Positions 6,239 to 48,911 of a DNA stretch of 64,000 nucleotides are shown piece by piece. How positions within the stretch are numbered: position 1 is the stretch's first letter; each line of letters begins with the position of its first letter. The stretch covers positions 804,106 to 868,105 of the forward strand of contig AUYT01000001.1 of assembly GCA_000447245.1 (NCBI GenBank), in the 5' to 3' direction. Source of the stretch: a candidate division Zixibacteria bacterium RBG-1 (GTDB taxonomy: Bacteria > Zixibacteria > MSB-5A5 > DSPP01 > RBG-1). The notes beneath the pieces were generated by a model. It was not told the origin of the DNA, did no database searches, and worked only from the letters and a program-made list of their open reading frames with translations. The position numbers and the translations under genes were made by a program.

Positions 6239-6280
6239 GGTCAACAATAGTCAATAATGATATTATTGTTGACCATAAAC
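6239..6280. promoter_or_regulatory. inverted repeat GGTCAACAATA-N14-TATTGTTGACC with flanking TCAATAAT direct repeats; candidate operator
   Basis: Perfect 11-bp inverted repeat arms at 6239-6249 and 6264-6274, about 30 bp upstream of the M24 start; the motif TATTGTTGACCAT recurs at 48895-48908. Confidence 0.4.
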
Positions 6281-6300
6281 TCACCATAAAGGAGAGAAAA

Positions 6301-7551
6301 TTGAGATGGAGATCAATCGGCAGGATGTTGTTTTTTACTCTGGCGATAAGTTCAGTCGCCTTTGCCAAACAGGGTTTGGAAACCAAAGTCAAAGCGGTCC
6401 AGAAATATTTAAAGGAAAATAAAATTTCCGGCTGGCTGTTATACGATTTTCACGGCAATAATCCGGTTGCCACGGAATTTGTCCAGCCCCAGGGGATGCA
6501 GACCAGAAGGTGGTATTATTTCATTCCCCAGTCCGGTTCGGCGTGGGGATTGGTGCATAGAATCGAACAGGCCAATTTCAAAGGTTTATACGGCAAGTTT
6601 GAAGTGTACTCCTCCTGGGATGAGCAGAAACGGAAGTTGAAAGAGATTTTGGCCGGACATAAAGAGATTGCCATGGAGTACTCGCCTCTGAATGCCATTC
6701 CCTATGTTTCCAGAGTGGATGCCGGTACGATTGAACTGCTCAGGTCTTTCGGGCTAAAAGTTATCTCTTCGGCTGATTTGGTGCAGTATTTCCAGGCCCG
6801 CTGGGATAAAGAAGCTTACCTGACTCACAAAGAGGCGGTCAAAGCTTTGATGGAGATTAAAGACAAGGCCTTCAACTTAGTGCGAGATAAAATCAGAAAA
6901 AATCAGAAAATTACAGAGTATGATTTACAACAATTTATCTGGAATCAGTATAAACAGTATAATATGATATCCGATTATTTTCCCATCTGTGCCGTGAACG
7001 AAAACGCCGGTAATCCGCACTATGAACCGACCAAAGAAAATCACCAGGAGATTAAAAAAGGGGATTTTCTCCTGATTGATATCTGGGCTAAAAAGAGTCA
7101 ACCTGGTTCGATTTACGGGGATATCACCTGGACGGCTTATGTGGGTGAAAAAGTGCCGGAAAAATTTGTGATGATTTTCAATATTGTCAAAGAGGCCCGG
7201 GATGCGGCGGTCAAGTTCCTGAAAGATAACTGGAAGAAGAAAACCATTTACGGCTGGCAGGTGGATGATGTTTCCAGAGGGGTAATTAAAAAAGCCGGCT
7301 ATGCTGATTTTTTCACCCACCGAACCGGGCATTCGATTGCCACGGAAGTGCACGGCAACGGGGTCAATATCGATAATTTTGAGACCAAGGATGAAAGAAA
7401 AATAATCCCCGGGGTGGGTTTTTCGATTGAGCCGGGAATCTACCTGAAAAATTTCGGAGTCCGTTCGGAAATTGATGTCTATGCCGGAGAGGATGGTATC
7501 GAGGTGACTTCGCTTCCTCTGCAGATGGAAATTATTCCTCTTTTGAAATAA
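6301..7551 (+). CDS. M24 family metallopeptidase (Xaa-Pro aminopeptidase/creatinase-like)
   Basis: 416 aa; TTG start 5 nt after AAGGAGAG; pita-bread motifs DFLLIDIW, HRTGHSIATEVHG, EPGIYL. Confidence 0.8.
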   Translation: MRWRSIGRMLFFTLAISSVAFAKQGLETKVKAVQKYLKENKISGWLLYDFHGNNPVATEFVQPQGMQTRRWYYFIPQSGSAWGLVHRIEQANFKGLYGKFEVYSSWDEQKRKLKEILAGHKEIAMEYSPLNAIPYVSRVDAGTIELLRSFGLKVISSADLVQYFQARWDKEAYLTHKEAVKALMEIKDKAFNLVRDKIRKNQKITEYDLQQFIWNQYKQYNMISDYFPICAVNENAGNPHYEPTKENHQEIKKGDFLLIDIWAKKSQPGSIYGDITWTAYVGEKVPEKFVMIFNIVKEARDAAVKFLKDNWKKKTIYGWQVDDVSRGVIKKAGYADFFTHRTGHSIATEVHGNGVNIDNFETKDERKIIPGVGFSIEPGIYLKNFGVRSEIDVYAGEDGIEVTSLPLQMEIIPLLK

Positions 7552-7980
7552 ATGAGAATATCTCCATCCAGAGTAAAAATCCAGCTCCGGAAATTTAAGA
7601 ATACCCCTTTTGCCCAGAACTTGGGGATAAAGATTGTGAAATTGAAACCGGGTTACGCAGAATTATCTTTAGCTTACCAGAAAAGAATAACACAACCCTA
7701 CGGTTTTATGCATGGAGGGGCTATTGCGGCTCTGGCAGATACTGCGGCGGCTACCTCGATTCATACTCTCTTGGAGCCGGAGGATAAGATGGTGAGTATT
7801 GAGATGAAGGTTAATTATATTGCGCCGGTGACTAAGGGGAGGATTTTTGCGGGGGCTAAAGTTATTCATAAAGGGAGGAAGACCGCGGTGACGGATGTGG
7901 ATATTAAAGATAGTGAGGGGAAGCTGTGCGCTAAGTCGATTGTGACTTATATGCTTTTTCCGGGTGGGAAGATAAAGTAA
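7552..7980 (+). CDS. PaaI/YbgC-type hotdog-fold thioesterase
   Basis: 142 aa; motif FMHGGAIAALADTAAATS typical of the PaaI thioesterase family. Confidence 0.7.
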   Translation: MRISPSRVKIQLRKFKNTPFAQNLGIKIVKLKPGYAELSLAYQKRITQPYGFMHGGAIAALADTAAATSIHTLLEPEDKMVSIEMKVNYIAPVTKGRIFAGAKVIHKGRKTAVTDVDIKDSEGKLCAKSIVTYMLFPGGKIK

Positions 7981-7995
7981 AATTAAGTTCCTTAA

Positions 7996-8850
7996 ATGCA
8001 GATTTGTCTACTTAAAGCATTATTTATTTCCTCTCATATTTTTTTTGTGACATTACTGGTGGTACAACCGTCTCTGGCATATGATGACGAAGGAGCAGTC
8101 GGATTTCAATCCTCAAAGACCAAATTGCAGAGTTTGACTGACTCACTTCCATCACAACTTGAAAAGACAAAAAAACGTTCAGATTTCGGAGTATTAGTTA
8201 ATTTCCGTCTTGGTCTTGGGCGACATGATAACTTGACTAAAGCTAAATCATGGACAGGACCTGAGCTAAAATCAAGTAATACCCATTTTACAGTTTTGAT
8301 TGAGAGTGGCGTTACCTATAAAAAAGCCTCAAGCAGTTTTTTTATTTCTTACCTGGCACCTATTCCCAGGATACAAAATATTTCCGGTTATGGACACAAG
8401 GCAGAGGCGGTGGATATCGGTTTGTTATTTAAAATGAGATTATTATCAATGAAATCTAAGGTCAACTTCACACCAGCCGTAGGATATATGTGGGCGAAAG
8501 AAATTGCGAACATTTATGACCCCAATGGGTCGCAACCAGATTCACTGGACTTGACCTATGCAGATAACGGGATGTCCTTTGGTGTGGACTTTCAATATAG
8601 ACTTGCAAAAAGCGGAAGAGTATCAGAGCATAGAATAGTCTTTGGTTACTTGCACGAAAATCTACGTAGAGAAGCGGATAGATATCAGTTGGAATGGAGA
8701 TTTTTAGGTTTTAATAAAGAGAAAGGTCAGGGAGGAAAGATGCTTTTTGACGATTTTGACTTTCTCGCTATTGGTTTGGAGCATGTAAGATGGTCAGATG
8801 GTAGAAATGACTGGTTTTTGATAGGTTCTTTTGGGGGGGTATTTAAGTAA
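7996..8850 (+). CDS. hypothetical exported protein (possible outer-membrane protein)
   Basis: 284 aa, N-terminal hydrophobic signal, no recognisable catalytic motif. Confidence 0.35.
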   Translation: MQICLLKALFISSHIFFVTLLVVQPSLAYDDEGAVGFQSSKTKLQSLTDSLPSQLEKTKKRSDFGVLVNFRLGLGRHDNLTKAKSWTGPELKSSNTHFTVLIESGVTYKKASSSFFISYLAPIPRIQNISGYGHKAEAVDIGLLFKMRLLSMKSKVNFTPAVGYMWAKEIANIYDPNGSQPDSLDLTYADNGMSFGVDFQYRLAKSGRVSEHRIVFGYLHENLRREADRYQLEWRFLGFNKEKGQGGKMLFDDFDFLAIGLEHVRWSDGRNDWFLIGSFGGVFK

Positions 8851-9069
8851 GGTATTATTTTAAGAGTTCCGTCAGGAGCTACTCCTGACGGCTATAACTG
8901 ACCTCACCCTACCCTCTCCTACAGGAGAGGGAGCAAAAATCCCTCCCATTGTAGGGGTTCACCCTGAAGGGAGGGGTCAGGATCACGAAGACACGAAAGC
9001 AACGAAAACAGTGGGTAGCCCAGCGGCTTCTGCCACTGGGTAAATGTGCGATAAATCGCACCGCTACAA
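8851..9069. repeat. composite intergenic palindromic repeat array (CCCTCTCC..GGAGAGGG hairpins plus GTGCGATAAATCGCACCGCTAC unit)
   Basis: Stacked hairpin units (CCGTCAGGAGCTACTCCTGACGG; ACCCTCTCCTACAGGAGAGGG; TCCCTCCCATTGTAGGGG) whose relatives recur at 27346, 32470, 36922, 37367, 41290, 44200, 46238, 48576, 50091. Confidence 0.6.
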
Positions 9070-9076
9070 CTTTAAA

Positions 9077-10450
9077 TTACGGTTTCGTCATCTCAATTTT
9101 CCCCAACCCCTCCAAATCCTTTCTGGTCTCTTTCGGATTGGTCACCACCACAAACACCACATCCTGATAGTCGAAATATTTATTCGCCACCCTTTTAATA
9201 TCATCCAAAGTCACCGCATCTATTTTTTGCATATAAGTATCAACATACTTGGAGTCCAAATTATAAAATTCAATATCGCTAATCTGCGAAGCCAAGGCCT
9301 CCGGTGTTTGAAGCCGGGAGGGAAAAAGCCCTTTCAAATAATTCTTAGCACCAGCCAGTTCATCTGGGCTGACCCCTTTTTCTCTAAACTTTTTCACTTC
9401 CTCTAAAGCCACATCAATAGTCTTTCTGGTAGTTTTATTCTTAGTAAAAGTAGAAATCAGATAAGCGCCGGTTTCTTTGAACATATTGAATCTGGAAGAA
9501 ACTCCATAAGTCAAACCTTGGTTGACTCTGATTTCATTGACTAATCTTGAAGAAAATCCTCCACCTAAAATAGTGTTAGCCACAACCACAGGGAAATAAT
9601 CGGGATTGTTACGAGGCACTGAAATATTCCCAATTCTAATCTGGGTTTGGGTCACGTCTGGTTTTTCCACAATCAGAAGTTTACGCCCTTTGTACTTAGT
9701 TGGAGCAGGAACTTTGTCTAGGCTAGAATTAGATTTTTGCCAATTGGCTAAAGTATTTTCAACTTTCTGTTTTACGCTCTGGGAACTGAAATCGCCTACC
9801 AAAGTTAAAATAGAATACTGGGGCACGAAATATTTTTTGTAAAAATTCATCACATCTTCGCGGGTAATGTTTTTCAAAGAAGTTTCGGTTCCAGAAACCG
9901 GATGTGAGTAAGGATTTTTTTCAAATAAAAATTGATAAAAAGCTTTAGTGGCAATGGTGGAGGGGTCATCTTTTTCTTCCTGTAAACCAGCTAAGGTCAG
10001 CTCTTTTTCCCGCTCAAACTCTTCTTGGGAAAAAACCGAATTGAGCAGAATGTCGGAAAGTAGATTCAAAGCTAAATCAACATCTTTGCTTAAAAATTCT
10101 CCACTGATAAAAGCATAATCGGGACTGGCTCCGCTGTTTAAACTCCCACCTACAAATTCAATTTCCTCTGAAATCTGTTCAAAAGATTTAGTTTTGGTCC
10201 CTTTTCTTATCAAGGTTGCGGTTAAGTCCGCCAAGCCTTCTTTTCCCAGCGGGTCATAGACAGAGCCGGCTTTGAGGACTAATCTAAAGTTTACCAAAGG
10301 GAGTTTCTTATTCTCCATTACCAGCAAAGTCAAATCATTTCCTAAGCTGGATTTTTGATAGGGGGGAAGTTTGATTTCGGATGCTAAAATTAAATTAGAA
10401 AAAACAACCAAGAGTAAAGAAACAATTATGGTAAGCTTAAATATTTTCAT
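9077..10450 (-). CDS. M16 family peptidase, non-catalytic-type subunit (no HxxEH)
   Basis: 457 aa, signal peptide, M16-like but no HxxEH; downstream of the catalytic M16 at 10486..11811. Confidence 0.7.
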   Translation of the reverse strand: MKIFKLTIIVSLLLVVFSNLILASEIKLPPYQKSSLGNDLTLLVMENKKLPLVNFRLVLKAGSVYDPLGKEGLADLTATLIRKGTKTKSFEQISEEIEFVGGSLNSGASPDYAFISGEFLSKDVDLALNLLSDILLNSVFSQEEFEREKELTLAGLQEEKDDPSTIATKAFYQFLFEKNPYSHPVSGTETSLKNITREDVMNFYKKYFVPQYSILTLVGDFSSQSVKQKVENTLANWQKSNSSLDKVPAPTKYKGRKLLIVEKPDVTQTQIRIGNISVPRNNPDYFPVVVANTILGGGFSSRLVNEIRVNQGLTYGVSSRFNMFKETGAYLISTFTKNKTTRKTIDVALEEVKKFREKGVSPDELAGAKNYLKGLFPSRLQTPEALASQISDIEFYNLDSKYVDTYMQKIDAVTLDDIKRVANKYFDYQDVVFVVVTNPKETRKDLEGLGKIEMTKP

Positions 10451-10485
10451 AAAGATTCATCTCCTTATAGTTTAAGGTCCAAATT

Positions 10486-11811
10486 TTAGATTCCAGCTTT
10501 TTCGGGCACTAAGGTTGCCACAGTCCGATTTCTATCAGTAAAATATTTTTGGGCTACTTTTTTTATATCCTCCACAGTGAGGGCTTTGTATTTATCCAAC
10601 ACTTTGTTTAAAAGAGTGTAGTCTCCGAATAAAGTCTGGTAAGTCCCAATCAAATTGGCTCTGCCGTTGTTGGTCTTCATAGATTTTATAAAGTTGGCTT
10701 CCAAAATATTTTTGGCTTTTTGCAGTTCTTTTTCAGTTACTCCAAGATTTTTGACTTTCTCTATTTCGTCATACAAAACCTTTTCCGCCTCGGTGGTATT
10801 AAAATTAGGTTTCATTCCCACATAAATATAAAACAGACCCGGGTCAATGGTGTAAAAGTAAGAAGACCAGACATCCGTAGCCATCTGTTTCTCATAAACC
10901 AAAGTTTTGTATAAGCGGGAGGATTCCCCTTCTGTCAAAATAATTTGCAAAACATCCAGAGCATAGATATCCTCACTCTGCGCACTGGGAATATGGAAGC
11001 CAGCCATAAAAGCTGGCAGTTGAGCTTCTTTGTAATATTGGACTCTTCTTTCCCCTTTTTGCTCTGGTTCGGCATTCACTACTTTAGGAATTGTAGGACC
11101 AGGTTTCAGATGTCCATAATATTTGTCTATTAACTTGAAAGCTTCAGCTGGATTTACATCTCCCACTATAATAATGGTGGCATTTCCTACTGAATAATAA
11201 GTCTTGAAGTAATTAACACAATCTTCGCGAGTGATAGCATCTAAATCCCCCATCCAACCCACCACCGGCCAATGATAAGGGTGGGCTTGAAAGGCAGCCG
11301 CGTATAATTCTTCTTCTAATTTTCCCTCATTGGAGTTGTCGGTCCGTAATCTTCTTTCTTCTTTGACCACTTCTCTTTCAGATGAAAGATTTTCTTCATT
11401 CAAAAGCAGGTTTTCCAGCCGGTCAGCATCTAGATCGATTATCAATTCTAATTTGTTAGAAGGAAAATCTTCAAAATAAGCGGTGAAATCGTTAGCGGTA
11501 TAAGCATTAGATACTCCACCATTGGATTCTAAAATTCTATCAAATTCTTTGGGACCATATCTTTTGGCACCGTTGAACATCATATGTTCAAACAGATGAG
11601 AAATTCCAGTGATGGCCTGTTTTTCGTTGCGGGAGCCGACTTTGAAGAAAGTAAAATAAGTGCAAATCGGCAAAGTATGGTCTTCTAATGTCAGAATCTT
11701 CAATCCATTCGGAAGTTGCTGGGATTTTATGTCTAAATCTAAGGCGAAAGCTAAACTGCTGAAAAATAAAAATGATATTAAGCTGGCGATTACAATTAAA
11801 CGCTTCATCAT
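10486..11811 (-). CDS. M16 family zinc peptidase (catalytic subunit)
   Basis: 441 aa, signal peptide, zinc motif HLFEHMMFNGAK (HxxEH). Confidence 0.8.
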   Translation of the reverse strand: MMKRLIVIASLISFLFFSSLAFALDLDIKSQQLPNGLKILTLEDHTLPICTYFTFFKVGSRNEKQAITGISHLFEHMMFNGAKRYGPKEFDRILESNGGVSNAYTANDFTAYFEDFPSNKLELIIDLDADRLENLLLNEENLSSEREVVKEERRLRTDNSNEGKLEEELYAAAFQAHPYHWPVVGWMGDLDAITREDCVNYFKTYYSVGNATIIIVGDVNPAEAFKLIDKYYGHLKPGPTIPKVVNAEPEQKGERRVQYYKEAQLPAFMAGFHIPSAQSEDIYALDVLQIILTEGESSRLYKTLVYEKQMATDVWSSYFYTIDPGLFYIYVGMKPNFNTTEAEKVLYDEIEKVKNLGVTEKELQKAKNILEANFIKSMKTNNGRANLIGTYQTLFGDYTLLNKVLDKYKALTVEDIKKVAQKYFTDRNRTVATLVPEKAGI

Positions 11812-11826
11812 ATTAACCCTCCTGTT

Positions 11827-12696
11827 TTAAGATTTTTTTCTTTGAGCTAAGACTACTCTTTCTATTCCGGCTAAATCTTTTTTGATTTGGATTTTCTCAA
11901 AATTGTCTGCTCGTTCAATCAACTTCACCACTTTTTTGGCTTGACCTAGAGCTACCTCTAAAGTTATTAGACCTCCCTTGCTCAAAAAATGTTTCCCCTG
12001 TTCAATTATTTGTTGCAGATAAAATAAGCCATTTTTTTTGGAAAGTAAAGCGACTTTGGGCTCGAATTTTTTTATCTCCTGAGGCAATGTTTTGAAGTCT
12101 GATTTTCTGACATAGGGGGGATTGGATACGATAGCGTCAATTTTTCCTTCCAGTTTTTTATCTAATTTCTTAAAGCCGTCACTCCGCAGGAATTTTATTT
12201 TTTTTGCAATTTTGTTGCTTAAAGCATTTTTTCGAGCCAGTTTTAACGCGGGTTGGGATACATCCAGTGCATAGACGAAGCAATTTAAATTCTTTGCCAA
12301 AGCAATGGCTATATTTCCAGAGCCGGCCCCCCAGTCAACTATTTGTAATTTTTCGCTTCTATCTTTGAAAAAGTTTATTACATTCTCCACTAAAATTTCC
12401 GTTTCCGGTCTGGGGATTAAAACATTTTTATCCACTTTTAATTTTAAACCATAAAATTCGGTCTCTCCTAAAATGTATTGTAACGGCTTACCTCTGACTC
12501 GTTCTTGAATCAATTTTTTATATTTCTGCTCTTGATTCTTGGTTAAAAACTGGTTGCCGTTGAGATACAATTCTACTTTGGGTTTTTTTACAACATGGCT
12601 TAACAGAAGTTCGGCGTTTACTCCCGGCGAACTGACTTTGCTTTTTTTGAAAATTTGTTTGGCTTTGCGAAGAGATTGTAAGTAAGTTTGATTCAT
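11827..12696 (-). CDS. prmC: release factor glutamine N5-methyltransferase
   Basis: 289 aa; SAM motif VDWGAGSGNIAIALA and catalytic NPPY (IVSNPPYV). Confidence 0.85.
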   Translation of the reverse strand: MNQTYLQSLRKAKQIFKKSKVSSPGVNAELLLSHVVKKPKVELYLNGNQFLTKNQEQKYKKLIQERVRGKPLQYILGETEFYGLKLKVDKNVLIPRPETEILVENVINFFKDRSEKLQIVDWGAGSGNIAIALAKNLNCFVYALDVSQPALKLARKNALSNKIAKKIKFLRSDGFKKLDKKLEGKIDAIVSNPPYVRKSDFKTLPQEIKKFEPKVALLSKKNGLFYLQQIIEQGKHFLSKGGLITLEVALGQAKKVVKLIERADNFEKIQIKKDLAGIERVVLAQRKKS

Positions 12697-13295
12697 TTTC
12701 GGCTGGTTAAACTCTGCAGGTATTTTTTTACTTTCTCTAAAGCTTTGGCTCGATGGCTGATTTCATTTTTTTGCTTCAATGAAAGCTGGGCAAAAGTTTT
12801 CTGCAATTTTGGGATATAAAATAAAGGGTCGTAGCCGAAACCAGATTTCCCTTTTCTTTCCGTGGCAATATAGCCGGAAATGTTTCCTTCCAAAAATTTT
12901 GCTTTTTTATCACTTAACATTAAAGCCATTACACATCTGAACCGGGCTTTCCGTTTCCGGAAGGGAACATTTTTCAATAGCTTCAACAATTTCAGATTAT
13001 TGTCTAAATAAGTGGCTTTTTCTCCGGCAAATCTTGAAGACCTGACCCCCGGTTTTCCTTTTAAGTAATCTACTTCTAAGCCGGAGTCGTCCGCTAAAAC
13101 AGGGAGCTTGGTCAATTTATAAACTTGGTCTGCTTTCTGCAGAGCGTTTTCTTCTAAAGTCTGGCCGGTCTCTTTGAGCTTGGAGATAGGTTTGAATTTA
13201 TCTAAAGTGAGTATCTGAATTTTCAAATCCGACAGGAGATTTTTTATTTCTTTGACTTTGTCTTTATTCTGGGTGGCTAAAATTAATTTCATCAA
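12693..13295 (-). CDS. rdgB: non-canonical purine NTP pyrophosphatase (RdgB/HAM1 family)
   Basis: 200 aa; N-terminus LILATQNKDKVKEI and SGFGYDPLF motif; 4-nt overlap with neighbours. Confidence 0.8.
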   Translation of the reverse strand: MMKLILATQNKDKVKEIKNLLSDLKIQILTLDKFKPISKLKETGQTLEENALQKADQVYKLTKLPVLADDSGLEVDYLKGKPGVRSSRFAGEKATYLDNNLKLLKLLKNVPFRKRKARFRCVMALMLSDKKAKFLEGNISGYIATERKGKSGFGYDPLFYIPKLQKTFAQLSLKQKNEISHRAKALEKVKKYLQSLTSRK

Positions 13296-14101
13296 TACTT
13301 GTTTATGTCAATCCTCTCAACCGAATTGACATTATTTTTTATGAATCTTCGGGCTAACTTGATAAATTTCTCTGGCAGGTCACTGACATAAAATTTTGGA
13401 TGTGGCTGGTGGTCGTTGTTCAGCAGATTTCTTTCCTCCAAAACTTTTTTGGTCTCCAAGGCAATAGCTTCTGCTGAATCCACTAGTTTAACTTTATTTT
13501 TCACCACTTTCTGAATCACATTTTTCAAAAGAGGATAATGGGTACAGCCCAAAATAATGGTATCCACTTTGGCTCTAATCAAAGGTTTCAGATAATCCTG
13601 TGCTATCAGGTAAGTGGCTTTTTTGTTGATATACCCTTCTTCAGCTAAGGAGACAAATAAAGGACAGGGGTAGGAAAAAACTTTCACACTCGGGTCAATT
13701 TGTCTGAGCGCTTCCGGGTAAGAATTGGAGGCCACAGTTCCTTCAGTTCCGATCACACCGATTCGCTTATTTTTAGTGGTCGCCAGCGCTTTTTTGACTC
13801 CCGGCTCTATCACTCCTAAAATCGGCAGAGGATAATTTTGCTTCAAAAAACTCAAGGCCTGGGCTGAAGCGGTGTTGCAAGCCACCACGATTATTTTAAC
13901 ATCCTGTCCCAGCAAAAATTTCACCGCCTGTTCGGAAAATCCCTGAATCACCTCTTTAGACCTGGTTCCGTATGGGAATCTGCCGGTATCTCCGAAGTAA
14001 ACTATTTCCTCCTGCGGAAGCTTTCTGAAAATCTCTTTGACAACCGTCAATCCTCCTACACCGGAATCAAATACCCCGACTTTCTGGGCAGGTGAATTCA
14101 T
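13292..14101 (-). CDS. murI: glutamate racemase
   Basis: 269 aa; VGVFDSGVGGLTV, VVACNTASA and ILGCTHYPLL motifs. Confidence 0.9.
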   Translation of the reverse strand: MNSPAQKVGVFDSGVGGLTVVKEIFRKLPQEEIVYFGDTGRFPYGTRSKEVIQGFSEQAVKFLLGQDVKIIVVACNTASAQALSFLKQNYPLPILGVIEPGVKKALATTKNKRIGVIGTEGTVASNSYPEALRQIDPSVKVFSYPCPLFVSLAEEGYINKKATYLIAQDYLKPLIRAKVDTIILGCTHYPLLKNVIQKVVKNKVKLVDSAEAIALETKKVLEERNLLNNDHQPHPKFYVSDLPEKFIKLARRFIKNNVNSVERIDINKY

Positions 14102-15549: not shown

Positions 15550-15553
15550 ACTT

Positions 15554-25690: not shown

Positions 25691-25794
25691 ATCTCTGAAA
25701 GCTACCCTGTAACGTCCCGTTTTACACTTAACAGTATCCCGTAGGGACACGGGACGTACGCCCTATGTAAAATAGGGGGTTACAGATATATTTT

Positions 25795-25850
25795 GGGTCA
25801 GGAGACCCAAATCTACCCAGGAATCCAGGGTAGGTCGAGGTCTCCTGACC
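25795..25850. repeat. palindromic hairpin repeat (GGGTCAGGAGACCC family)
   Basis: GGGTCAGGAGACCCAAATCTACCC...GGGTAGGTCGAGGTCTCCTGACC; a further inverted-repeat region (ACGTCCCG / CGGGACGT) lies at 25700-25790. Confidence 0.6.
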
Positions 25851-25888
25851 TCGACTGAAGCAAAAATGAAATTCCCTGAACTTTCTAC

Positions 25889-37911: not shown

Positions 37912-38026
37912 AAAAGATTAGAGGCCATTTTAGTGGTAGCCGCAGACTTTAGTCTGCGCTTTAAGATTTCGCAACCTAAAGGTTGCGGCTACCAGGTTTT
38001 TTTATTAATCCTTAATCCCTGTTTTA

Positions 38027-41176: not shown

Positions 41177-41289
41177 GTTTAATTAGATTGCAATATAAAA
41201 ATTCCTGTCGGTGTCTTGTGGTTACACCATAAACTGTCAGGAATTTTTTATAATAAAAATCATTTTATGCCCCGCGTAGGGGTGGTTCA

Positions 41290-41470
41290 TTACGAGTTCG
41301 CCACGAGTGGAGCTTGTCTCCACCCGAGAAAATGGGGGAAGCTAAACTTCCGACCCCAGGTGACTGACCTCACCCCAACCCTCTCCTTAAAGGAGAGGGA
41401 GAAAATTCCCTCCCCTGTAGGGGAGGAAAAAGGAGGGGTTAGTGTTGGGTAGCTCTGGCTTCTGCCACAG
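41290..41470. repeat. composite palindromic repeat array
   Basis: GAGTGGAGCTTGTCTCCACCCG, ACCCTCTCCTTAAAGGAGAGGG, TCCCTCCCCTGTAGGGGAGG units plus GGGTAGCTCTGGCTTCTGCCACAGGG (cf. 9015-9040). Confidence 0.55.
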
Positions 41471-41493
41471 GGAGAAGGCCTCCGAAATTTCCC

Positions 41494-41522
41494 TTGACAA
41501 AAATGCTTAAAACCAATAGTAT
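41494..41522 (+). promoter_or_regulatory. putative sigma70-type promoter (TTGACA-17-TAGTAT)
   Basis: Consensus hexamers 16 nt upstream of the cbiX-like start. Confidence 0.4.
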
Positions 41523-41537
41523 CTAAAAAATATTTTT

Positions 41538-42047
41538 ATGAAGACCTTCTTAGTCTTAGCCATGCACGGGTCGCCCCCCAATGATTTCCCCAAAAATGAG
41601 CTGGCTGAGTATTTCGGTTTAAAGTCCCGCTTAGAAATGGGGGGCGGGATGAAGAACCCGGCTTTGGAAGAAAGGTATAACCAGCTGAATGAGAAAATCT
41701 GCTCCTGGCCCCGCACAGCTGAAAATGATCCCTTTTGGGCCGGCTCCCAAAAGTTAACTTTCGATCTGCAAAGAGCTACAGGTTTGGAGGTGCTTTTGGT
41801 TTTCAACGACTTCTGTTCTCCAAATTTAGAAGAGGGGATGGAAAAAGGGATCTCATCCGGGGCTGAAAAACTGATTGTCATTACTACCATGATGACTAAA
41901 GGAGGGGAGCACTCCGAGGTCGAAATCCCGGCTGCTATTCAAAAAGTTCAAAGCCATCACCCTCAAGTTAAAATTGTTTTTGCCTGGCCTTTTGAACCAA
42001 AAGAGGTGGCTTCTTTTTTAGCCCAACAGATCCAACGCTTCCTTTAG
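41538..42047 (+). CDS. CbiX/SirB-type sirohydrochlorin chelatase (small form)
   Basis: 169 aa; N-terminal LVLAMHGSP motif and overall CbiX-like architecture. Confidence 0.65.
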   Translation: MKTFLVLAMHGSPPNDFPKNELAEYFGLKSRLEMGGGMKNPALEERYNQLNEKICSWPRTAENDPFWAGSQKLTFDLQRATGLEVLLVFNDFCSPNLEEGMEKGISSGAEKLIVITTMMTKGGEHSEVEIPAAIQKVQSHHPQVKIVFAWPFEPKEVASFLAQQIQRFL

Positions 42048-42188
42048 TCTGATTAAACCCATTTACCTTTTTATTTTCTTCCTCTTTTTTCAATAGGCAC
42101 CCAAGAATTTTCCGAGAACGAAAGCTCAGGAGGTTTATTTAGGCATTTGTTAAACGAATCAATTCGACTTAAACTGTTAAAAAATCTT

Positions 42189-43232
42189 ATGCTGAGAATT
42201 GATGGAAACTACGGTGAAGGGGGAGGGCAGATTTTGCGAACTGCTCTGGCTTTGTCGCTGGTTCTACAAAAGCCGATTGAAATTTACAATATCAGAAAGG
42301 GTCGCAAAAATCCAGGGCTGGCTCCCCAGCATCTAACCAGCGTCAATGCAGCCGCTAAAATCTCCGGCGCACAGGTGGAAGGAAACAAACTAAAATCAGA
42401 AGAACTAAAATTTTCTCCCGGTCAAATAAAAGCCGGCCAGTATCTTTTCAATGTAGCCGAAGAAAGAGGTTCAGCCGGTTCGGTGGCTTTGGTTTTGCAG
42501 TCTATTTTGCTGCCACTGAGTTTAGCGGCTGGGTCTTCTAAAGTAACACTTTTAGGCGGAACGCATGTCCCTTTTTCCCCACCCTTTACTTATTATCAGG
42601 AGATTTTCTTTCCAACTTTGCAAAGATTAGGTTTAAACATTAAAAGTGAGATCAAAAGGTGTGGGTTTTACCCGAAGGGTGGAGGAGAAGTAGTTTGCGA
42701 AATTCAGCCGGTGGCTGAGATTAAAAATCTCAATCTTCTGGAAAGAGGAAAACTTTTAAAATTGTCCGGAATTTCAGCTATGGCTAATTTACCACTTTCC
42801 ATTGCCGACAGACAGAAAAATTCGGCCCTAAAACTTTTACAACAAAAAAATCTAAAAGCAGACATTAAAATTATTCCAGCTTTCTCATTCGGTCAAGGGA
42901 CATTTTTCTTTCTGAAAGCGGAATTTGAAAACTGTGCCGCTGGCTTTGGCTCCTTGGGTGAGATGGGGAAACGAGCTGAAATTGTGGCAGAAGAAGCGGT
43001 AAGTCAACTTTTACAATTTCTCTCCACAGATGCCGTCATAGAAGAACATTCGGCTGACCAGCTGATTCCGTTTTTGGCTTTGGCCAAGCAGAGTTCTGCG
43101 TTCACAGTTTCCAAGATTTCAAAACATCTATTGACTAATATTTGGGTGGTTAAACAGTTTTTGGAGATAGAGATTAGTCTGGAAGGGGAAGAGGGACAAG
43201 CCGGTAAAGTTATGATAAAACCTGCTGAGTAA
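42189..43232 (+). CDS. rtcA: RNA 3'-terminal phosphate cyclase
   Basis: ORF 42147..43232; likely ATG 42189 (MLRIDGNYGEGGGQILRTALALS); matches RtcA along its length, including the conserved His region SADQLIPFLALA. Confidence 0.85.
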   Translation: MLRIDGNYGEGGGQILRTALALSLVLQKPIEIYNIRKGRKNPGLAPQHLTSVNAAAKISGAQVEGNKLKSEELKFSPGQIKAGQYLFNVAEERGSAGSVALVLQSILLPLSLAAGSSKVTLLGGTHVPFSPPFTYYQEIFFPTLQRLGLNIKSEIKRCGFYPKGGGEVVCEIQPVAEIKNLNLLERGKLLKLSGISAMANLPLSIADRQKNSALKLLQQKNLKADIKIIPAFSFGQGTFFFLKAEFENCAAGFGSLGEMGKRAEIVAEEAVSQLLQFLSTDAVIEEHSADQLIPFLALAKQSSAFTVSKISKHLLTNIWVVKQFLEIEISLEGEEGQAGKVMIKPAE

Positions 43233-43313
43233 ATTCCCGCAGAGTTTGGCTAAGGTTCTGACTGGGCTATCTGGCTATCCGTTTGTGATACCTAAAAAAG
43301 TAAAAATAAGCCA

Positions 43314-43341
43314 TTGACAAAGATAAAACTATAGTTATACT
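43314..43341 (+). promoter_or_regulatory. putative sigma70-type promoter (TTGACA-16-TATACT)
   Basis: Near-consensus hexamers about 100 nt upstream of gene 43446. Confidence 0.4.
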
Positions 43342-43445
43342 ATTAAATAGTGAAAAAAATCACAAGCTGGAGTATAAAACAGACTGGGATGACCTTGGGG
43401 AGCGTATTAATAAGAAACAGTAGGAAAAAACATTGAGGAGGGTTT

Positions 43446-44171
43446 ATGAAAATAGTAAGAATCGCTTTACCCTGTATTTTTTTGATTCTTCTCTCTTTTT
43501 TAATCCTGACTGCTCATCCGAATTTTACCGGATATTCAGGGGCACCGGGCTGTAAAGGAACCTGCGCCTCATCCTGTCACGGTTTTGCGGGGGGAACTAT
43601 CTCAGTCAGCGGTTTTCCCAGCACCTATACTCCAGGACAAATCTATACTCTAAAGGTGAGTCATTCTGCCGGAGGAAGCATTGCCAATTTTAACGCTTCA
43701 GTCCGAATTGTAACAGACAGCAGCAATGCCGGAGTTTTATCAGCAGGACAGAGCACCGTTACCTACAATACAACCGGGGAGACCAATGGAATGCATTTTT
43801 CCAATGCCGATCAGGATAGTGGCACGTTTTCCTGGACTGCGCCGGATACTTCAGTAGGTGAAGTACGTCTTTATTTAGCCGGACATCAAGGGACTACCCC
43901 GGATGATCCCAACACTGAACTGGTATTGAGCGCCACCTCGGGGGTTTGTCTGGCGAAAGCCGGAGATGTCACCGGAGATGGCACCATTCTTTTGCCCGAC
44001 ATTATAGCCATAATAAATTTTCTATTTAGAGCCGGACCAACCCCCACCCCGCTCTGCCGGGGGGACGCCAACGGCAATGGAACTATTTTACTTCCGGATG
44101 TAATTTACTTAATCAATTTCCTGTTTAGGGCCGGCCCAGCCCCGGTTAAAACAGGGGTCTGTTGCCTGTAA
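43446..44171 (+). CDS. small secreted protein with C-terminal dockerin-like tandem repeats
   Basis: 241 aa; signal peptide; C-terminus GDVTGDGTILLPDIIAIINFLFRAGPTP...GDANGNGTILLPDVIYLINFLFRAGPAP...VCCL. Confidence 0.55.
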   Translation: MKIVRIALPCIFLILLSFLILTAHPNFTGYSGAPGCKGTCASSCHGFAGGTISVSGFPSTYTPGQIYTLKVSHSAGGSIANFNASVRIVTDSSNAGVLSAGQSTVTYNTTGETNGMHFSNADQDSGTFSWTAPDTSVGEVRLYLAGHQGTTPDDPNTELVLSATSGVCLAKAGDVTGDGTILLPDIIAIINFLFRAGPTPTPLCRGDANGNGTILLPDVIYLINFLFRAGPAPVKTGVCCL

Positions 44172-44199
44172 TATCTGATAGAAAGAGCTATTCGCATAG

Positions 44200-44305
44200 T
44201 GTGGAGACCAGCTCCACCCGAAAAATTAACCCCACCTTCACTCTCACCTCTAGGGGATGGATTTTTTGTCCCCTCTCCTGTAGGAGAGGATTAGGGTGAG
44301 GTTAG
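44200..44305. repeat. composite palindromic repeat array
   Basis: GTGGAGACCAGCTCCACCCG and CCCCTCTCCTGTAGGAGAGG units, ending GATTAGGGTGAGGTTAGT. Confidence 0.5.
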
Positions 44306-44319
44306 TATTTCATTCTCTG

Positions 44320-44348
44320 TTGACAAATCATTTGACTAAAACTATACT
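44320..44348 (+). promoter_or_regulatory. putative sigma70-type promoter (TTGACA-17-TATACT)
   Basis: Near-consensus hexamers 42 nt upstream of nadE. Confidence 0.4.
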
Positions 44349-44389
44349 TTGTGTAATTTTCATATTGAAAAAATTCGAATGAGGAAAAG

Positions 44390-46129
44390 ATGCGAATCTT
44401 AAGAGTGGGGATGGCGCAAATCAACTGCACGGTCGGGGACCTTGGGGGAAATGTCAAAAAGATTAAAGAGTATATCAGATTTGCTCAGGAGTCGGAAGTC
44501 GACATTATAGCTTTCCCTGAATTGGCCGTCACTGGCTATCCTCCCGAAGATTTACTTTTAAAACCCAAATTCATCGAAGATAATCTGGAAGCTCTGCAGG
44601 AGATTGTGCAGGAATCCCATAACATCTGCAGTATAGTCGGCTTTGTGGATAAAAAAGGTGATATCTACAACGGCGCCGCCATAATTTCCAACCAGAAACT
44701 TTTCGGAGTATTTCACAAAAAACAGCTTCCCAACTACGGGGTATTCGACGAGTACCGCTATTTCCATCCGGGAGAAGATCTGGCGGTCTATTTAATCAAC
44801 GGTGCCGTGGTAGGAATCAACATCTGCGAAGATATCTGGTATCCGGACGGTCCGGCCCATATCCAAGCAAAAAAAGGGGGAGCGGAGGTTATTCTCAACA
44901 TCAACGCCTCACCTTACCATATCGCCAAATGGAAAACCCGGGAGAAGATGCTATCCACCAGGGCTTTTGATAATGGTATCTATGTGGTGTATGTCAACTT
45001 AATCGGCGGTCAGGATGAGCTGGTGTTTGACGGGGACAGCATGATTTTCGACCCGGAAGGGGCATTGGTTGCCCGAGGCAAACAGTTTGAAGAGGATTTT
45101 ATAATCTATGATCTGGAATTAGCCAAGCCCTTAAGTGCCAAACTGCATTATCCCCGAGGAAGAGAAGAAAATCCGGAAGAAACCGAGGATAAAAATCACT
45201 TACAGCAGATTAAGATCTCCGAGAGTTCCTCTGATAAAAAGAAAAAATCCATACCCAAAAGAGAGATAACGACTCCTCATTCCACAGGTGAAATCTACAA
45301 CGCTCTGGTCTTGGGAACTTCCGATTATCTGCGGAAAAACGGCTTTGCCAAAGCGGTTATCGGGCTTTCCGGCGGAATCGATTCAGCTCTGGTTTCCACC
45401 ATTGCAGCGGATGCTATTGGTAAAGAGAATGTGATAGGTGTCTTCATGCCGTCAGTTTATACTGCGGAGCGGAGTGAAAAAGATGCTATGAAATTAGCTT
45501 CCAATTTGGGAATAAAGGTTTTGACTATCCCTATTCAGACCGTTTTTCAGGCCTATCTTTCCACCCTGCAGAAGGAGTTTAAAGGCAAGCCGGCAGATGT
45601 CACCGAAGAAAATCTGCAGGCCCGGATCAGGGGGAATATTCTTATGGCTCTTTCCAACAAATTCGGCTGGATAGTTCTTGCCACCGGCAACAAATCCGAG
45701 CTGGCCTGCGGCTATGCCACTTTATATGGAGATATGGCCGGAGGTTTTGCGGTAATCAAAGATATTTTCAAAACTTTGGTGTATGAATTAGCCAAATATA
45801 AAAATTCCACAGCCGGCAAAGAAATAATTCCTAAGTCCATTATAGAAAGGGAGCCGACCGCAGAATTGAGAGAAAAACAAAAAGATACAGACAGCCTTCC
45901 TCCCTATGATATTTTAGACCCGATTCTCAAGGCCTATGTGGAAGAGGATAAATCTTTTCAGGATATAATAGCGGCCGGATATGATGAAAAAATGGTTAAA
46001 AGGGTAATTTCCTTAGTTGACAAAAGCGAATATAAACGCCGCCAGGCACCTTTGGGGATAAAAGTTACCCAGAGGGCCTTCGGGAAGGACCGCCGGCTAC
46101 CCATTACCAATCGCTACACCGGATTTTAA
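44390..46129 (+). CDS. nadE: glutamine-dependent NAD+ synthetase
   Basis: 579 aa; N-terminal CN-hydrolase domain (FPELAVTGY, NICEDIW) plus C-terminal synthetase P-loop GLSGGIDSALVS. Confidence 0.9.
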   Translation: MRILRVGMAQINCTVGDLGGNVKKIKEYIRFAQESEVDIIAFPELAVTGYPPEDLLLKPKFIEDNLEALQEIVQESHNICSIVGFVDKKGDIYNGAAIISNQKLFGVFHKKQLPNYGVFDEYRYFHPGEDLAVYLINGAVVGINICEDIWYPDGPAHIQAKKGGAEVILNINASPYHIAKWKTREKMLSTRAFDNGIYVVYVNLIGGQDELVFDGDSMIFDPEGALVARGKQFEEDFIIYDLELAKPLSAKLHYPRGREENPEETEDKNHLQQIKISESSSDKKKKSIPKREITTPHSTGEIYNALVLGTSDYLRKNGFAKAVIGLSGGIDSALVSTIAADAIGKENVIGVFMPSVYTAERSEKDAMKLASNLGIKVLTIPIQTVFQAYLSTLQKEFKGKPADVTEENLQARIRGNILMALSNKFGWIVLATGNKSELACGYATLYGDMAGGFAVIKDIFKTLVYELAKYKNSTAGKEIIPKSIIEREPTAELREKQKDTDSLPPYDILDPILKAYVEEDKSFQDIIAAGYDEKMVKRVISLVDKSEYKRRQAPLGIKVTQRAFGKDRRLPITNRYTGF

Positions 46130-46237
46130 ATTTGAAAAAATTTAAAATTATTAAATCTTTCTAAGATTTCACTTGAAAAAAAATCAAAAAAAATGTATAT
46201 TTAGGCAACTAAAATGCTATTAAACTTTCACCTTCAC

Positions 46238-46320
46238 GGGTAGCGGTCGGATTTATCCGACTATAGATTTCATGTGCGATGAACCCCTCAGGTTCTTCGG
46301 GACAAGTCGCACCGCTACAA
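46238..46320. repeat. palindromic repeat (GTAGCGGTCGGATTTATCCGAC / GTGCGATGAA...GTCGCACCGCTAC family)
   Basis: Paired hairpin units related to 9046-9069, 48576-48659, 50091-50116. Confidence 0.55.
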
Positions 46321-46377
46321 AAAAAAGAGGGAGGATGAACGAGAAAAATTTTAACCGGTTTTATAGGATTTTTATTT

Positions 46378-46926
46378 TTGCTGACGGTCACTTTGATTTT
46401 GGCGGACCAGAACAAAGATAAAAAGGAACAGGAGGGTATGCTGATGGAAATGCCCAAACCCGGGCCGGAGTTAAAAAGATTGGATTTTTTTGTGGGAAAC
46501 TGGACGGCGGATGTGACTATGTATCCCAACGAATTTATGCCCGGAGGGAAAAGCAAGGGGAAAGAAAGTATGAAATGGGAACTGGACGGAATGTTTATCT
46601 CCATGGATTATCAGGACCAGCCCGGAGAAGAAAAGAAGATGCCGGCTTACAAGGGAAAAGGTTTTATGACTTATGATATGCAAAAGAAGACCTATCGCTC
46701 CTGGTGGATGGATAACTGGGGCTCGGCTTCCGAATCCGTGGGAGGCTGGCCAGATGACAAGACCCTGGTCTTAAGCCACCAAGGAGAATTCATGGGGAAG
46801 AAATTCCATGAAAAATTTGTGTACCAGATTTTGGACCAAAATAAGTTTCATTTCCAGATTGAGCACTCTCCGGACGGGAAAGAGTTTAAAAAAGTGATGG
46901 AAGCCACTTATACCAGGGAAAAATAA
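46378..46926 (+). CDS. DUF1579-like protein
   Basis: 182 aa; segment LDFFVGNWTADVTMYP...MKWELDGMFISMDYQD resembles the DUF1579 family; start uncertain (an upstream ATG with hydrophobic leader lies in another frame). Confidence 0.45.
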   Translation: MLTVTLILADQNKDKKEQEGMLMEMPKPGPELKRLDFFVGNWTADVTMYPNEFMPGGKSKGKESMKWELDGMFISMDYQDQPGEEKKMPAYKGKGFMTYDMQKKTYRSWWMDNWGSASESVGGWPDDKTLVLSHQGEFMGKKFHEKFVYQILDQNKFHFQIEHSPDGKEFKKVMEATYTREK

Positions 46927-47173
46927 GCTGTGTAAGGATAGTTTCAAAAAGGAGTTTTTATTTTAAAACCTGTTGTCAAAAACATACTTATCACTTACAA
47001 GTTCTCAATTTTGGCATTGATTTTGCTCATTTTCGTATCTGTGGCTTACCTAGTCAAAATCCAGGCAGGAGAAGAACCTTCTAAGAGTCAAGCCCAGCAG
47101 GGTGGATTTCCCAACCTAGTAGGTGGTTTAAAAGCAACTTAAGAGAAAAAATCATGCCCCCAAAAAACGGATA

Positions 47174-47656
47174 ATGATTCAGAGATATTTATACCAAGCC
47201 AAGCCGGAAAAAGTTTTCAAAGCTTTGACTGATGCCAAAGAGCTGACCAAATGGTTTTTAAAAGAGGCTCAGGTGCAGCTCAAGAAGGGGGGAAAGATGA
47301 GGTTTGTCTGGAGCCCCAAGGATAAGCACGAAAATAAGATTCTGGACTTAGTTCCCAATAAACGCTTAAGAATGACCTGGCCCACCATGGGCTGGGGAGG
47401 CACTCCTAAGACCGATACTTATGTCACCTTCAGTCTGACTCCTAAGGGAAAATCTACTCTTTTGCAGATAGAGCACACTGGTTTCGGACCCGGTGAGGAA
47501 TGGGTAATGTATTATGCCGGTACCTATTCGGGCTGGACTTATTATCTATTGAATTTGAAATCCTGGCTGGAGCACGGAATTGATTTGAGAGACAAAATAT
47601 CTGAAACTGTCATAACTGAAAACGATTCTGAAAAATCTAGGAAAGGGAAAAGATAG
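47174..47656 (+). CDS. SRPBCC-superfamily protein (AHSA1/START-like)
   Basis: 160 aa; pattern PEKVFKALTDAKELTKWF...TFSLTPKGKSTLLQIEHTGF typical of activator-of-Hsp90-ATPase-homologue-like proteins. Confidence 0.6.
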   Translation: MIQRYLYQAKPEKVFKALTDAKELTKWFLKEAQVQLKKGGKMRFVWSPKDKHENKILDLVPNKRLRMTWPTMGWGGTPKTDTYVTFSLTPKGKSTLLQIEHTGFGPGEEWVMYYAGTYSGWTYYLLNLKSWLEHGIDLRDKISETVITENDSEKSRKGKR

Positions 47657-47681
47657 TTTTTAAGATATCTTAAAAATTTAC

Positions 47682-48470
47682 ATGCGAAGATTTGGTTTAC
47701 ATCTGCTCCTCGGTTTCTTCCTGCTGATTTTTACAGCGGTTCAGCTTCAGGCCGGAAGACCCTTTGAGACGGAAGTTTCTGAAATTCATAATAATCAGAG
47801 GATTAAGTTCGATTTGGGGATAGATTATTCCCACATTGCTTCCCGGCAGGATTTGCTGGCTTTACCCTGGATAGGGATAAATTTTTCCACCGGTCAAATA
47901 GTGGAAATCCAGGCCTATTACGATTTTTTCTACCGCTTCACCAAGAGAGCTACCACAGTTTACGGCTCCGGGGATTTATCTTTGTGGACCAAATTAAGAT
48001 TCGTGGAAGAAAAAGGGAGTCGTCCAGCCGTCGGGTTACGCTTCGGTGTCAAACTTCCCAATGCCAAAGATGAGGTGGGATTGGGAACCGACCAGACCAA
48101 TTTCTACGCCGCTGGCTTAATCGGGAAAACCTGGAGAAAACTGGAGAATCATCTGAACTTAGGAATCGCCATCTACGACAGCCCCTTCCGGGTCAGGGAG
48201 CAAAAGGATTTGTTTACCTTAGCGTATTCTTCCATTTACAATTTTTCCCCTACCCTGCAGTTCGTTTTTGATTTCTACACCCAGCAAGGGGCCGACCTTC
48301 GCTTTAATCTGAATAAACTTACTCTGGGAAGCAGAATCGCGCATAAAAAATGGGTCTGGGAATTGGCTTTGAAAAAGGGAATCAACTCCATCAACAAAGG
48401 ATATCAGGGGGAACAATCCTTAGACTGGGGCTTAGTTTTATCCGCCAGCCGTTATTTTGATTTGAAGTAG
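47682..48470 (+). CDS. hypothetical outer-membrane beta-barrel protein
   Basis: 262 aa; signal peptide; alternating amphipathic beta-strand pattern; C-terminal aromatic-rich strand. Confidence 0.4.
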   Translation: MRRFGLHLLLGFFLLIFTAVQLQAGRPFETEVSEIHNNQRIKFDLGIDYSHIASRQDLLALPWIGINFSTGQIVEIQAYYDFFYRFTKRATTVYGSGDLSLWTKLRFVEEKGSRPAVGLRFGVKLPNAKDEVGLGTDQTNFYAAGLIGKTWRKLENHLNLGIAIYDSPFRVREQKDLFTLAYSSIYNFSPTLQFVFDFYTQQGADLRFNLNKLTLGSRIAHKKWVWELALKKGINSINKGYQGEQSLDWGLVLSASRYFDLK

Positions 48471-48497
48471 AGTTTATCACAACACACATCTTTGTAG

Positions 48498-48528
48498 GCG
48501 GGGATCTTTTCCCCGCTTTTTTTGTTTT
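48498..48528 (+). terminator. rho-independent terminator
   Basis: GCGGGGATCTTTTCCCCGC hairpin followed by TTTTTTTGTTTTG, 28 nt after the stop of gene 47682..48470. Confidence 0.6.
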
Positions 48529-48575
48529 GTCGGGAAGAGCTCGCGACCTACGAAATTGCAAGATTTGGCGATTCT

Positions 48576-48659
48576 GTAGCGGTGCGATTCATCGCACCTT
48601 AGCTGATATTTGGTTAAATCAAAGTAACCTTTTCAGGTCGGATAAATCCGACCGCTACA
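48576..48659. repeat. palindromic repeat (GTAGCGGTGCGATTCATCGCAC ... GTCGGATAAATCCGACCGCTAC)
   Basis: Same family as 46238-46320 with the units in swapped order. Confidence 0.55.
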
Positions 48660-48776
48660 TTATGTAACTATATTTGTCATAAAAAATGAAGATTAACAAA
48701 CAGGGGGGGGTAATATCCGTAAAAAGAGTAGTTAGCTGTTCTATAAAAATGCAATAAATGGGATAACATCAAGGAT

Positions 48777-48911
48777 AGTCAATAATACTCAACAATAGTA
48801 TTATTATTGACTATAGTTGAGTATTGAGGAGGTGAGGGACTAAATAGTTTAACTTCTAAATTTAAGGAAAATTAGTTAGTAGTCAAGCATATTACTATTG
48901 TTGACCATTAA
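48777..48911. promoter_or_regulatory. AT-rich interlocking inverted repeats (TAGTCAATAAT / ATTATTGACTA; CAACAATAGT) plus TATTGTTGACCAT motif; candidate operator region
   Basis: Palindromic block 48777-48830 and the motif TATTGTTGACCAT at 48895-48908 (also at 6264-6276), about 45 bp upstream of the HMA lipoprotein gene. Confidence 0.4.

Follow-up and report, generated by a model that had tools for sequence, protein, structure and literature searches.

A dispersed palindromic repeat probably underlies the motif common to two gene upstream regions in Zixibacteria RBG-1

Two intergenic regions in a 64,000-nucleotide stretch of the genome of the candidate division Zixibacteria bacterium RBG-1 (contig AUYT01000001.1, positions 804,106 to 868,105; further referred to as the window) share an inverted-repeat motif. 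The first region, which contains site 1, precedes the gene of a secreted M24 metallopeptidase (6301-7551, + strand). The second contains sites 2a and 2b and is the 485-bp gap preceding the gene of a Cys-rich HMA-domain lipoprotein (48956-50017, + strand), which is 100% identical to an RBG-1 protein and is also found on MEWQ01000011.1 (GCA_001775405.1). An earlier sequence-only reading located the inverted-repeat words in both upstream regions correctly; the distances it gave are corrected here to 25 bp from the array end to the TTG start of the M24 gene and 48 bp from the array end to the ATG of the HMA gene. It proposed either a common regulator-binding site or a small mobile palindromic element with a promoter. 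We suggest that the shared motif very probably represents the core of a non-coding palindromic repeat of 50-70 bp, dispersed in the intergenic DNA of RBG-1-like Zixibacteria. Hence, the peptidase and lipoprotein genes have the motif in common because each of the two intergenic regions holds a copy of the repeat.

Listing of all TTGAC and GTCAA words in both regions reveals an underlying unit of about 10 bp, YATTRTTGAC(Y)AT, in 10-bp phase. There are 10 copies of this phased unit, YATTRTTGACYAT, in the window, and they are found only at 6227-6276, 48775-48824 and 48879-48908. The array of site 1 (6227-6276, no strand assigned) consists of three reverse units and one forward unit (pattern '---+'), with GTCAA at 6230, 6240 and 6250 and TTGAC at 6269. 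Its inverted repeat (6239-6274, no strand assigned) is formed by GGTCAACAATA (6239-6249) and TATTGTTGACC (6264-6274), separated by a 14-bp spacer (6250-6263). With its flanks site 1 is a full copy of the repeat (6218-6287, + strand), in which AATGGTTCG is followed by the four-unit array and AAACTCACCAT; it matches the canonical copies at 31/32 positions on the left and 31/35 on the right. The insertion point is between the stop codon of a DUF2914 gene (6195) and the ribosome-binding site of the M24 gene. Site 2a (48775-48824, + strand) is a 50-bp four-unit core with the pattern '--++', which belongs to the ACTC/GAGT variant type. Site 2b (48879-48908, + strand) is a 29-bp two-unit module, TAGTCAAGCATATTACTATTGTTGACCAT, with the pattern '-+'.

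The resemblance of the sites is confirmed as real and far from chance. In the window TATTGTTGACCAT has three exact matches, at 6237-6249 (- strand), 6264-6276 (+ strand) and 48896-48908 (+ strand), and seven with up to two mismatches versus 1.9 expected; seven were reached in none of 100 shuffles. All four exact copies of TAGTCAATAAT fall within the two sites, which are identical to each other at 29 of 32 positions. With a weight matrix of the units, nine of the ten score 17-21 bits; the weak reverse unit of site 2b scores 12.6 bits versus 13.7 bits for the best match elsewhere in the window and is not separated from background. A profile hidden Markov model of related copies finds only the three arrays in the 64 kb (nhmmer E = 2e-13 for site 2a, 6e-13 for site 1 and 6e-6 for site 2b).

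The repeat is also found in other genomic contexts. A species-level scan, covering one genome per species, was made with the 22-base pattern TCAAYAATNNTAYTATTRTTGA. It returned 97 matches, 96 of which are chance hits in AT-rich genomes and one is a Zixibacteria contig (L108; labels of this kind denote our related loci) with two four-unit arrays in other gene contexts. One of these arrays has the units of site 1 together with its flanks ATGGTTCG and AACTCACCATAAAG. When metagenomes were scanned with a 20-mer of the core, 47 loci came up, and 26 of them have multi-unit arrays. Five of the 26 array contigs are from assembly Ga0154874, whose contig _111 has an identical site 1; the remaining four are further copies in the window's own assembly. 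Another 12 are from metagenome Ga0326597, and several are from the metagenome that gave L015, a relative discussed below. Most of the metagenome contigs are assigned to Zixibacteria from shared metagenomes and orthologs, and not contig by contig. Viral contigs gave only unrelated single 20-mer matches. Chance similarity between two pieces of AT-rich intergenic DNA would fit the composition of the motif and the 96 spurious hits of the degenerate pattern, however, in view of the shuffles, the profile E-values of sites 1 and 2a and the dozens of near-identical copies in related genomes, we regard it as practically excluded.

The copies have a common anatomy. Seventeen distinct copies of the 50-bp core, ATAGTCAATAATGGTCAACAATAATATCATTATTGACTATTGTTGACCAT, align without gaps. 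The core comprises four 10-bp-phased units, two leftward (GTCAA) and two rightward (TTGAC), and in many copies it is flanked by ATGGTTCG on the left and AAACTCACCAT on the right. About 70 bp including the flanks are common to nine copies, almost base for base, and an exact 26-mer is found in six; site 1 is one of the full copies. There are also compound loci, where copies are nested within the centre of other copies. The repeat is too short for an open reading frame (ORF). Every array is intergenic, and the copies mostly follow a stop codon by a few bases or closely precede a Shine-Dalgarno sequence. The family is apparently undescribed; in the text of the RBG-1 genome paper the words repeat, palindrome and transposase occur nowhere.

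The genes next to the arrays are unrelated in function. They include rpsI, rplS, rpmF, clpP, fabF, rpoN, parA and nuoA, as well as the 3′ end of groEL, an iscA-like gene, aminotransferases, an M17 peptidase, response regulators and a histidine kinase. Many copies are inside apparently conserved operons (rplM-rpsI, trmD-rplS and tig-clpP, with the partners judged from ORF sizes). At the groEL 3′ end the array starts 0 bp past the stop codon in two species (L129, 6487; L138, 1065-1114; the copies are orthologous). In L138, the one of the two whose downstream flank was read, it precedes the groEL intrinsic terminator, so it is within the groEL 3′ untranslated region (UTR). In L117, which belongs to the window's own assembly, the array spans +1 to about +49 past a promoter with 12/12 consensus positions, TTGACA-17-TATAAT.

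The common regulator-binding site, possibly metal-linked, is not supported, and the refuting condition named in the earlier reading applies here. The same array is found in many intergenic regions whatever the function of the gene, among them those of ribosomal protein genes, clpP, fabF, rpoN, nuoA, the groEL 3′ end and aminotransferases. Moreover, it is absent upstream of the M24 gene in relatives with 92% and 89% identical M24 proteins. In its specific form, this idea treats the arrays as operators for a single transcription factor, perhaps responsive to metals, under which the M24 and HMA genes are co-regulated. It would be in line with the metal binding of both products, with promoter-like hexamers of equal geometry overlapped by the arrays at both sites, and with the copies upstream of the HMA gene kept in two other species. 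Nevertheless, we consider it very unlikely, since the array also stands beside ribosomal, chaperone, protease, fatty-acid, respiratory and sigma-factor genes, is missing upstream of M24 in the two relatives mentioned and upstream of the HMA gene in another (L009), and travels without any regulator gene. To our knowledge, none of the Fur, IscR type 1, ArsR/CadC, FNR and MexR boxes fits the unit orientation and spacing.

The regulators encoded in the window are only two Rrf2 proteins and one protein with sigma-70 region 4. The Rrf2 genes have a palindrome upstream, GTATTCATATATATGAATAC, that differs from the array motif; therefore, the Rrf2 operators are not the array motif, and this also counts against the specific operators considered above. 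A link to Rrf2, to which the two genes in the window and one near the L108 arrays had pointed, was rejected for the same reason. The Rrf2 genes are preceded by clear TTGACA promoters, therefore the organism uses ordinary sigma-70 boxes. The palindrome GTATTCATATATATGAATAC is perfect and lies at 55271-55290, with the TTGACA -35 box on one side and the Rrf2 gene (55323) on the other; a related one, GTATATTCATATAATATGAC, lies at about 55863-55885, after another TTGACA and before a multicopper-oxidase/MtrB-type cluster. Both are likely Rrf2 operators.

Gain and loss of copies is seen directly between close relatives. The gap between the DUF2914 and M24 genes is 105 bp with the element in the window and 33-35 bp without it in L015 and L017; in the alignment the two states differ by a clean indel of about 70 bp. 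Identity of the M24 protein to that of the window is 92% in L015 and 89% in L017, which are both empty, and 94% in L126, which is filled. The preceding gap, between the SDR and DUF2914 genes, holds an element in L126; the window, L015 and L017 have none there, and the junctions are exact. Hence, there are two filled/empty pairs with precise junctions between close relatives. Both insertions are directly 5′ of a Shine-Dalgarno sequence. No target-site duplication is found at the DUF2914/M24 junction and no convincing one at the SDR/DUF2914 junction, where the left ACCATAAA resembles the right end of the element, yet that right end is present in all copies. Site 1 and the orthologous copy L126b differ in one respect only: the 14-bp spacer that separates GGTCAACAATA from TATTGTTGACC in one copy is the exact reverse complement of that in the other.

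The symmetry of the repeat was analysed in the 17 aligned copies. Units 1 and 3 are complementary at 97.9%, with two pairs changed on both sides, and units 2 and 4 at 96.8%, with three such pairs, including the GGTC/GACC to ACTC/GAGT switch of site 2a. None of 500 shuffles and no slid control reached the level of either pairing. Covariation is lacking for a simple nested hairpin, whose 87.4% of paired positions equals the shuffles. Therefore, the repeat is built of two interleaved inverted repeats with a 10-bp offset, and not of one hairpin. The integron attC reading was rejected, as the neighbours are syntenic housekeeping genes and the order of the arms is interleaved, not nested.

We suggest that the repeat may spread through single-stranded or hairpin DNA intermediates with the help of a protein supplied in trans. 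Such REP-like spread (REP, repetitive extragenic palindromic) would fit the lack of target duplication, the hairpin arms, the spacer inversion, the central nesting and the orientation bias. The bias is moderate: among the oriented copies it is about 10 to 4 for the TTGACCAT end toward a start codon, and about a quarter of these copies are opposite to the direction of transcription. Nine full copies are known outside the window, at eight independent loci; in seven the start codon follows 24-46 nt after TTGACCAT, and the sole independent exception is L108A/L116, which faces away. The CACCAT end (CACCCT in one) is 13-18 nt from the start codon in 7/8 of the full copies that face a gene start. In an extended version of this scheme, the repeat would be an active mobile element, moving via hairpin DNA without target duplication and homing to the 5′ edges of Shine-Dalgarno sequences and to the centres of its own copies. 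Its interleaved stems would flip the spacer, as between the window and L126, and thereby re-orient the central -10 box, yielding an invertible portable promoter/operator module, which was co-opted by the leader of the HMA gene. We consider this extended version improbable.

By its properties the dispersed repeat resembles REP elements and miniature inverted-repeat transposable elements (MITEs), and the best reading is that it is mobile or duplicative. The mobile part of the small palindromic element proposed earlier is supported by numerous near-identical copies, two filled/empty pairs and nesting, and its promoter part is limited to consensus-level matches. Like the REP elements of proteobacteria, with their bacterial interspersed mosaic element (BIME) and REP doublet (REPIN) forms and REP-associated tyrosine transposases (RAYT), the repeat is short, imperfectly palindromic, non-coding, strictly outside genes and often operon-transcribed; it forms inverted, nested and compound clusters, makes no target duplication and has hairpins. 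Unlike them, it is built of a 10-bp unit in helical phase, and its symmetry is interleaved (1/3, 2/4) instead of the single hairpin or simple doublet that is the replicating unit of REP elements. Its copy number looks like tens, not hundreds, no RAYT gene was noted in the contigs analysed, and the host belongs to an uncultured phylum of the Fibrobacteres-Chlorobi-Bacteroidetes (FCB) group.

The repeat is similar to regulatory MITEs, such as the Correia elements (CREE) of Neisseria, in being a small non-autonomous repeat near gene starts, polymorphic between strains, with promoter-like boxes and co-transcription. A MITE holding a minisatellite in Porphyromonas gingivalis (PMC4596501) is another element for comparison. 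As expected for MITEs, many non-coding copies, shorter than about 600 bp, are found in one genome (five contigs of the window's assembly and 12 of Ga0326597). However, there are no clear long terminal inverted repeats: the ends of the element, ATGGTTCG and CTCACCAT, are complementary at 6/8 positions, and the strong inverted repeats are internal. Neither of the two junctions resolved shows a duplication of TA or another target. The repeat has no known related insertion sequence, and most MITEs are longer than its 50-70 bp.

Membership in the class of putative mobile promoters depends on similarity and position only (Matus-Garcia et al. 2012, PMC3488235). These are upstream segments of 50-100 bp with at least 80% identity before unrelated genes of one genome, and the canonical copies fall under this definition (PMC3488235), being about 95% identical over about 70 bp before different genes in the Ga0326597 contigs. 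That these contigs represent one genome is our assumption, as the metagenome also contains a second lineage with the HMA ortholog (L014). Unlike putative mobile promoters, the Zixibacteria copies are also located after stop codons and in a 3′ UTR, and their promoter activity is only predicted. Multi-site operator arrays, iteron-like or of overlapping repeats as for Fur, have similar short helically phased units that overlap -35/-10-like hexamers. In contrast to such arrays, the copies described here have identical flanks, precise gain and loss and functionally unrelated neighbours, which indicates a common ancestral repeat rather than operators that converged.

Orthologs of the HMA gene in three other species encode proteins that are 69% (L011), 65% (L013) and 71% (L009) identical to that of the window. 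Both arrays, 2a and 2b, are kept in L011. They are also kept in L013, where 2a is 20 bp shorter and has one reverse and one forward unit. In L009 array 2b is absent and 2a is absent or decayed, with the surrounding blocks retained. The 266 bp upstream of the gene are 85-88% identical between species versus 77% within the coding sequence. Since the HMA copies are conserved over deeper divergence, they may have been co-opted.

Several points weigh against a dispersed, mobile repeat. The copy number in the tens is an extrapolation from contigs, not a count in a complete RBG-1 genome, and the Zixibacteria origin of most metagenome contigs is indirect, as mentioned above. Between species, conservation is higher in the copies before the HMA gene (85-93%) than in its coding sequence (77%), and a selected function would account for this better than pure selfishness of the repeat. 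Near the copies no transposase or recombinase was recognized; a PHROG scan of 145 neighbouring ORFs, which is uninformative here, had no transposase or integrase in the top 25 of 104 families. Apart from ATGGT...ACCAT, clear terminal inverted repeats are lacking, as is target-site duplication, which places the repeat outside the classical MITE definition. Finally, the conserved GTCAA/TTGAC cores in 10-bp phase would suit a DNA-binding protein equally well.

The last point leads to a wider alternative, in which an abundant protein, a global regulator or a nucleoid-associated one, binds DNA at the arrays, and the spread of the repeat wires dozens of genes to one factor. Such a role would explain why the GTCAA/TTGAC cores are invariant in the 17 copies, with variable spacers, and why the units are spaced by exactly 10 bp, which is one helical turn. 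The position of the L117 array past its promoter is also a classical operator position. However, independent half-sites of a single protein would not be expected to show compensatory changes between paired units, the copies between the groEL stop codon and the terminator have no obvious operator role, and no candidate protein was identified. We therefore see the binding protein as rather unlikely.

The second alternative concerns transcription. The sequence-only reading took TTGACC as a promoter box, but there is no -10 box at 16-18 bp from it before either gene, and TTGACC was rejected as the -35 box of the M24 and HMA genes. A different match is predicted in site 1 (6238-6266, + strand), where the -35 TGGTCA is followed after a 17-bp spacer by the TG-extended -10 TATTAT; it agrees with the consensus at 9/12 hexamer positions and is the sole match in 6100-6400. 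The predicted match in site 2a (48776-48804, + strand) has the -35 TAGTCA, a 17-bp spacer and the -10 TATTAT, with the same geometry. In fact, T(A/G)GTCA, 17 bp and TAnnAT are found on both strands of every 50-bp core, with TAnnAT at the centre of the array. The central TAnnAT with the outer T(A/G)GTCA may thus form a weak promoter-like arrangement on both strands, which could add to the transcription of M24 and HMA; judged from these hexamers, a weak internal promoter for the two genes is possible.

Accordingly, one might view the repeat as a portable two-way promoter cassette, or 'mobile promoter', which provides downstream genes with their own transcription start. Besides the hexamers on each strand of all the cores, the full copies mostly aim the AAACTCACCAT end at the start codon, the gene downstream of L117b has no other promoter candidate upstream, and families of reused 50-100 bp promoters are known (PMC3488235). 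At the same time, the -35-like hexamers fit TTGACA at just 4/6 positions, while the genome has clear TTGACA promoters. Many copies are in apparently conserved operons, after a perfect promoter or in the groEL 3′ UTR, for some copies a promoter would be redundant or pointless, and the central TAnnAT is inseparable from the constraints of the palindrome. An apparent tRNA case at L108 also provides no support. There, about 41 nt (6198-6238) similar to the 5′ part of tRNA-Phe(GAA) abut the right end of the array, but ARAGORN finds no tRNA and the sequence is a truncated 5′ fragment without a gene, so the idea of a tRNA promoter was rejected. The promoter cassette is thus a tentative possibility, which we find doubtful.

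The third alternative places the function in RNA. Most copies appear to be in transcribed DNA, that is 5′ leaders, operon gaps and one 3′ UTR, therefore the usual effect would be a stable, non-terminating hairpin added to the mRNA. By analogy with REP elements, the repeat might act through alternative hairpins, which alter the stability, processing or translation of the neighbouring cistrons. In addition to these locations, the predicted folding is strong: -26.1 kcal/mol for the canonical element (z = -5.8), -22.2 for site 1 and -16.7 kcal/mol for site 2a, with z-scores ranging from -4 to -5.8. No terminator-like T run follows the arrays of the window, so transcription stop is not expected, and both stems covary. 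On the other hand, the covariation could also result from arm-to-arm conversion or inverted duplication at the DNA level, the quarter of the oriented copies directed against transcription is not readily accommodated, and there is no match to an Rfam family. We hold an RNA-level role for possible, with the same reserve as for the promoter. Two related candidates were rejected. Intrinsic termination fails, as there is no terminator-like site at the window arrays and the groEL terminator is a separate one, located after the array. An Rfam family fails, as nothing was found at the arrays at the gathering score and nothing at E up to 1 in 48450-49000.

Taken as a dispersed repeat, the motif has several practical consequences. 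It removes a false lead, as co-regulation of the peptidase and the metal-binding lipoprotein is not shown, and upstream motifs shared in the RBG-1 genome should be checked against the repeat family first. A repeat family is recorded in a phylum without a cultured member. The presence or absence of copies provides a practical strain marker, and it is likely that the copies cause breaks in Zixibacteria assemblies. The 10-bp phasing, the interleaved stems, the gain and loss by ribosome-binding sites and the spacer inversion are all testable in metatranscriptomes and with reporters.

Further features accompany the HMA gene. Upstream of its arrays, at 48697-48721, CAAAC-N16-CGTA is invariant in 4/4 upstream regions of the HMA orthologs, including the array-less L009. 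It looks like a promoter of the extracytoplasmic function (ECF) sigma type. A gene pair for an ECF sigma factor and an anti-sigma factor is located 1.5-2.4 kb upstream of the HMA gene in L013, and a similar word, AACAAACGGGGG, is found at 55149-55160 before the second Rrf2 gene. Directly after array 2a, at 48826-48844, all four species have an unchanged GAGGAGGTGAGGG, which can be read as a Shine-Dalgarno sequence with a GTG start and a 3-codon mini-ORF; the ORF has 25 codons in L009. For the HMA gene, GAGGAGGTGAGGG may belong to a leader peptide or a leader RNA. In the lipoprotein itself, three CxxC...C(P)xxxC modules follow the HMA domain and an acidic linker at residues about 250-330. The modules are similar to a short heavy-metal-binding domain that some Cu/Ag efflux proteins have at the N-terminus, and one homolog of the lipoprotein is annotated PF19335.

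Last but not least, other elements are found near the arrays. The 12/12 sigma-70 promoter of L117 (7972-8000, - strand) is upstream of the array and of a gene for a small secreted protein of 112 amino acids with no Pfam match. GC-rich hairpins of the GGTCGG...CCGACC type are present in the same intergenic regions, at 25790-25860 and 48628-48650 in the window and also in L013. In L152 and L161 a cccttacttttataggga repeat is inserted beside or inside the arrays.

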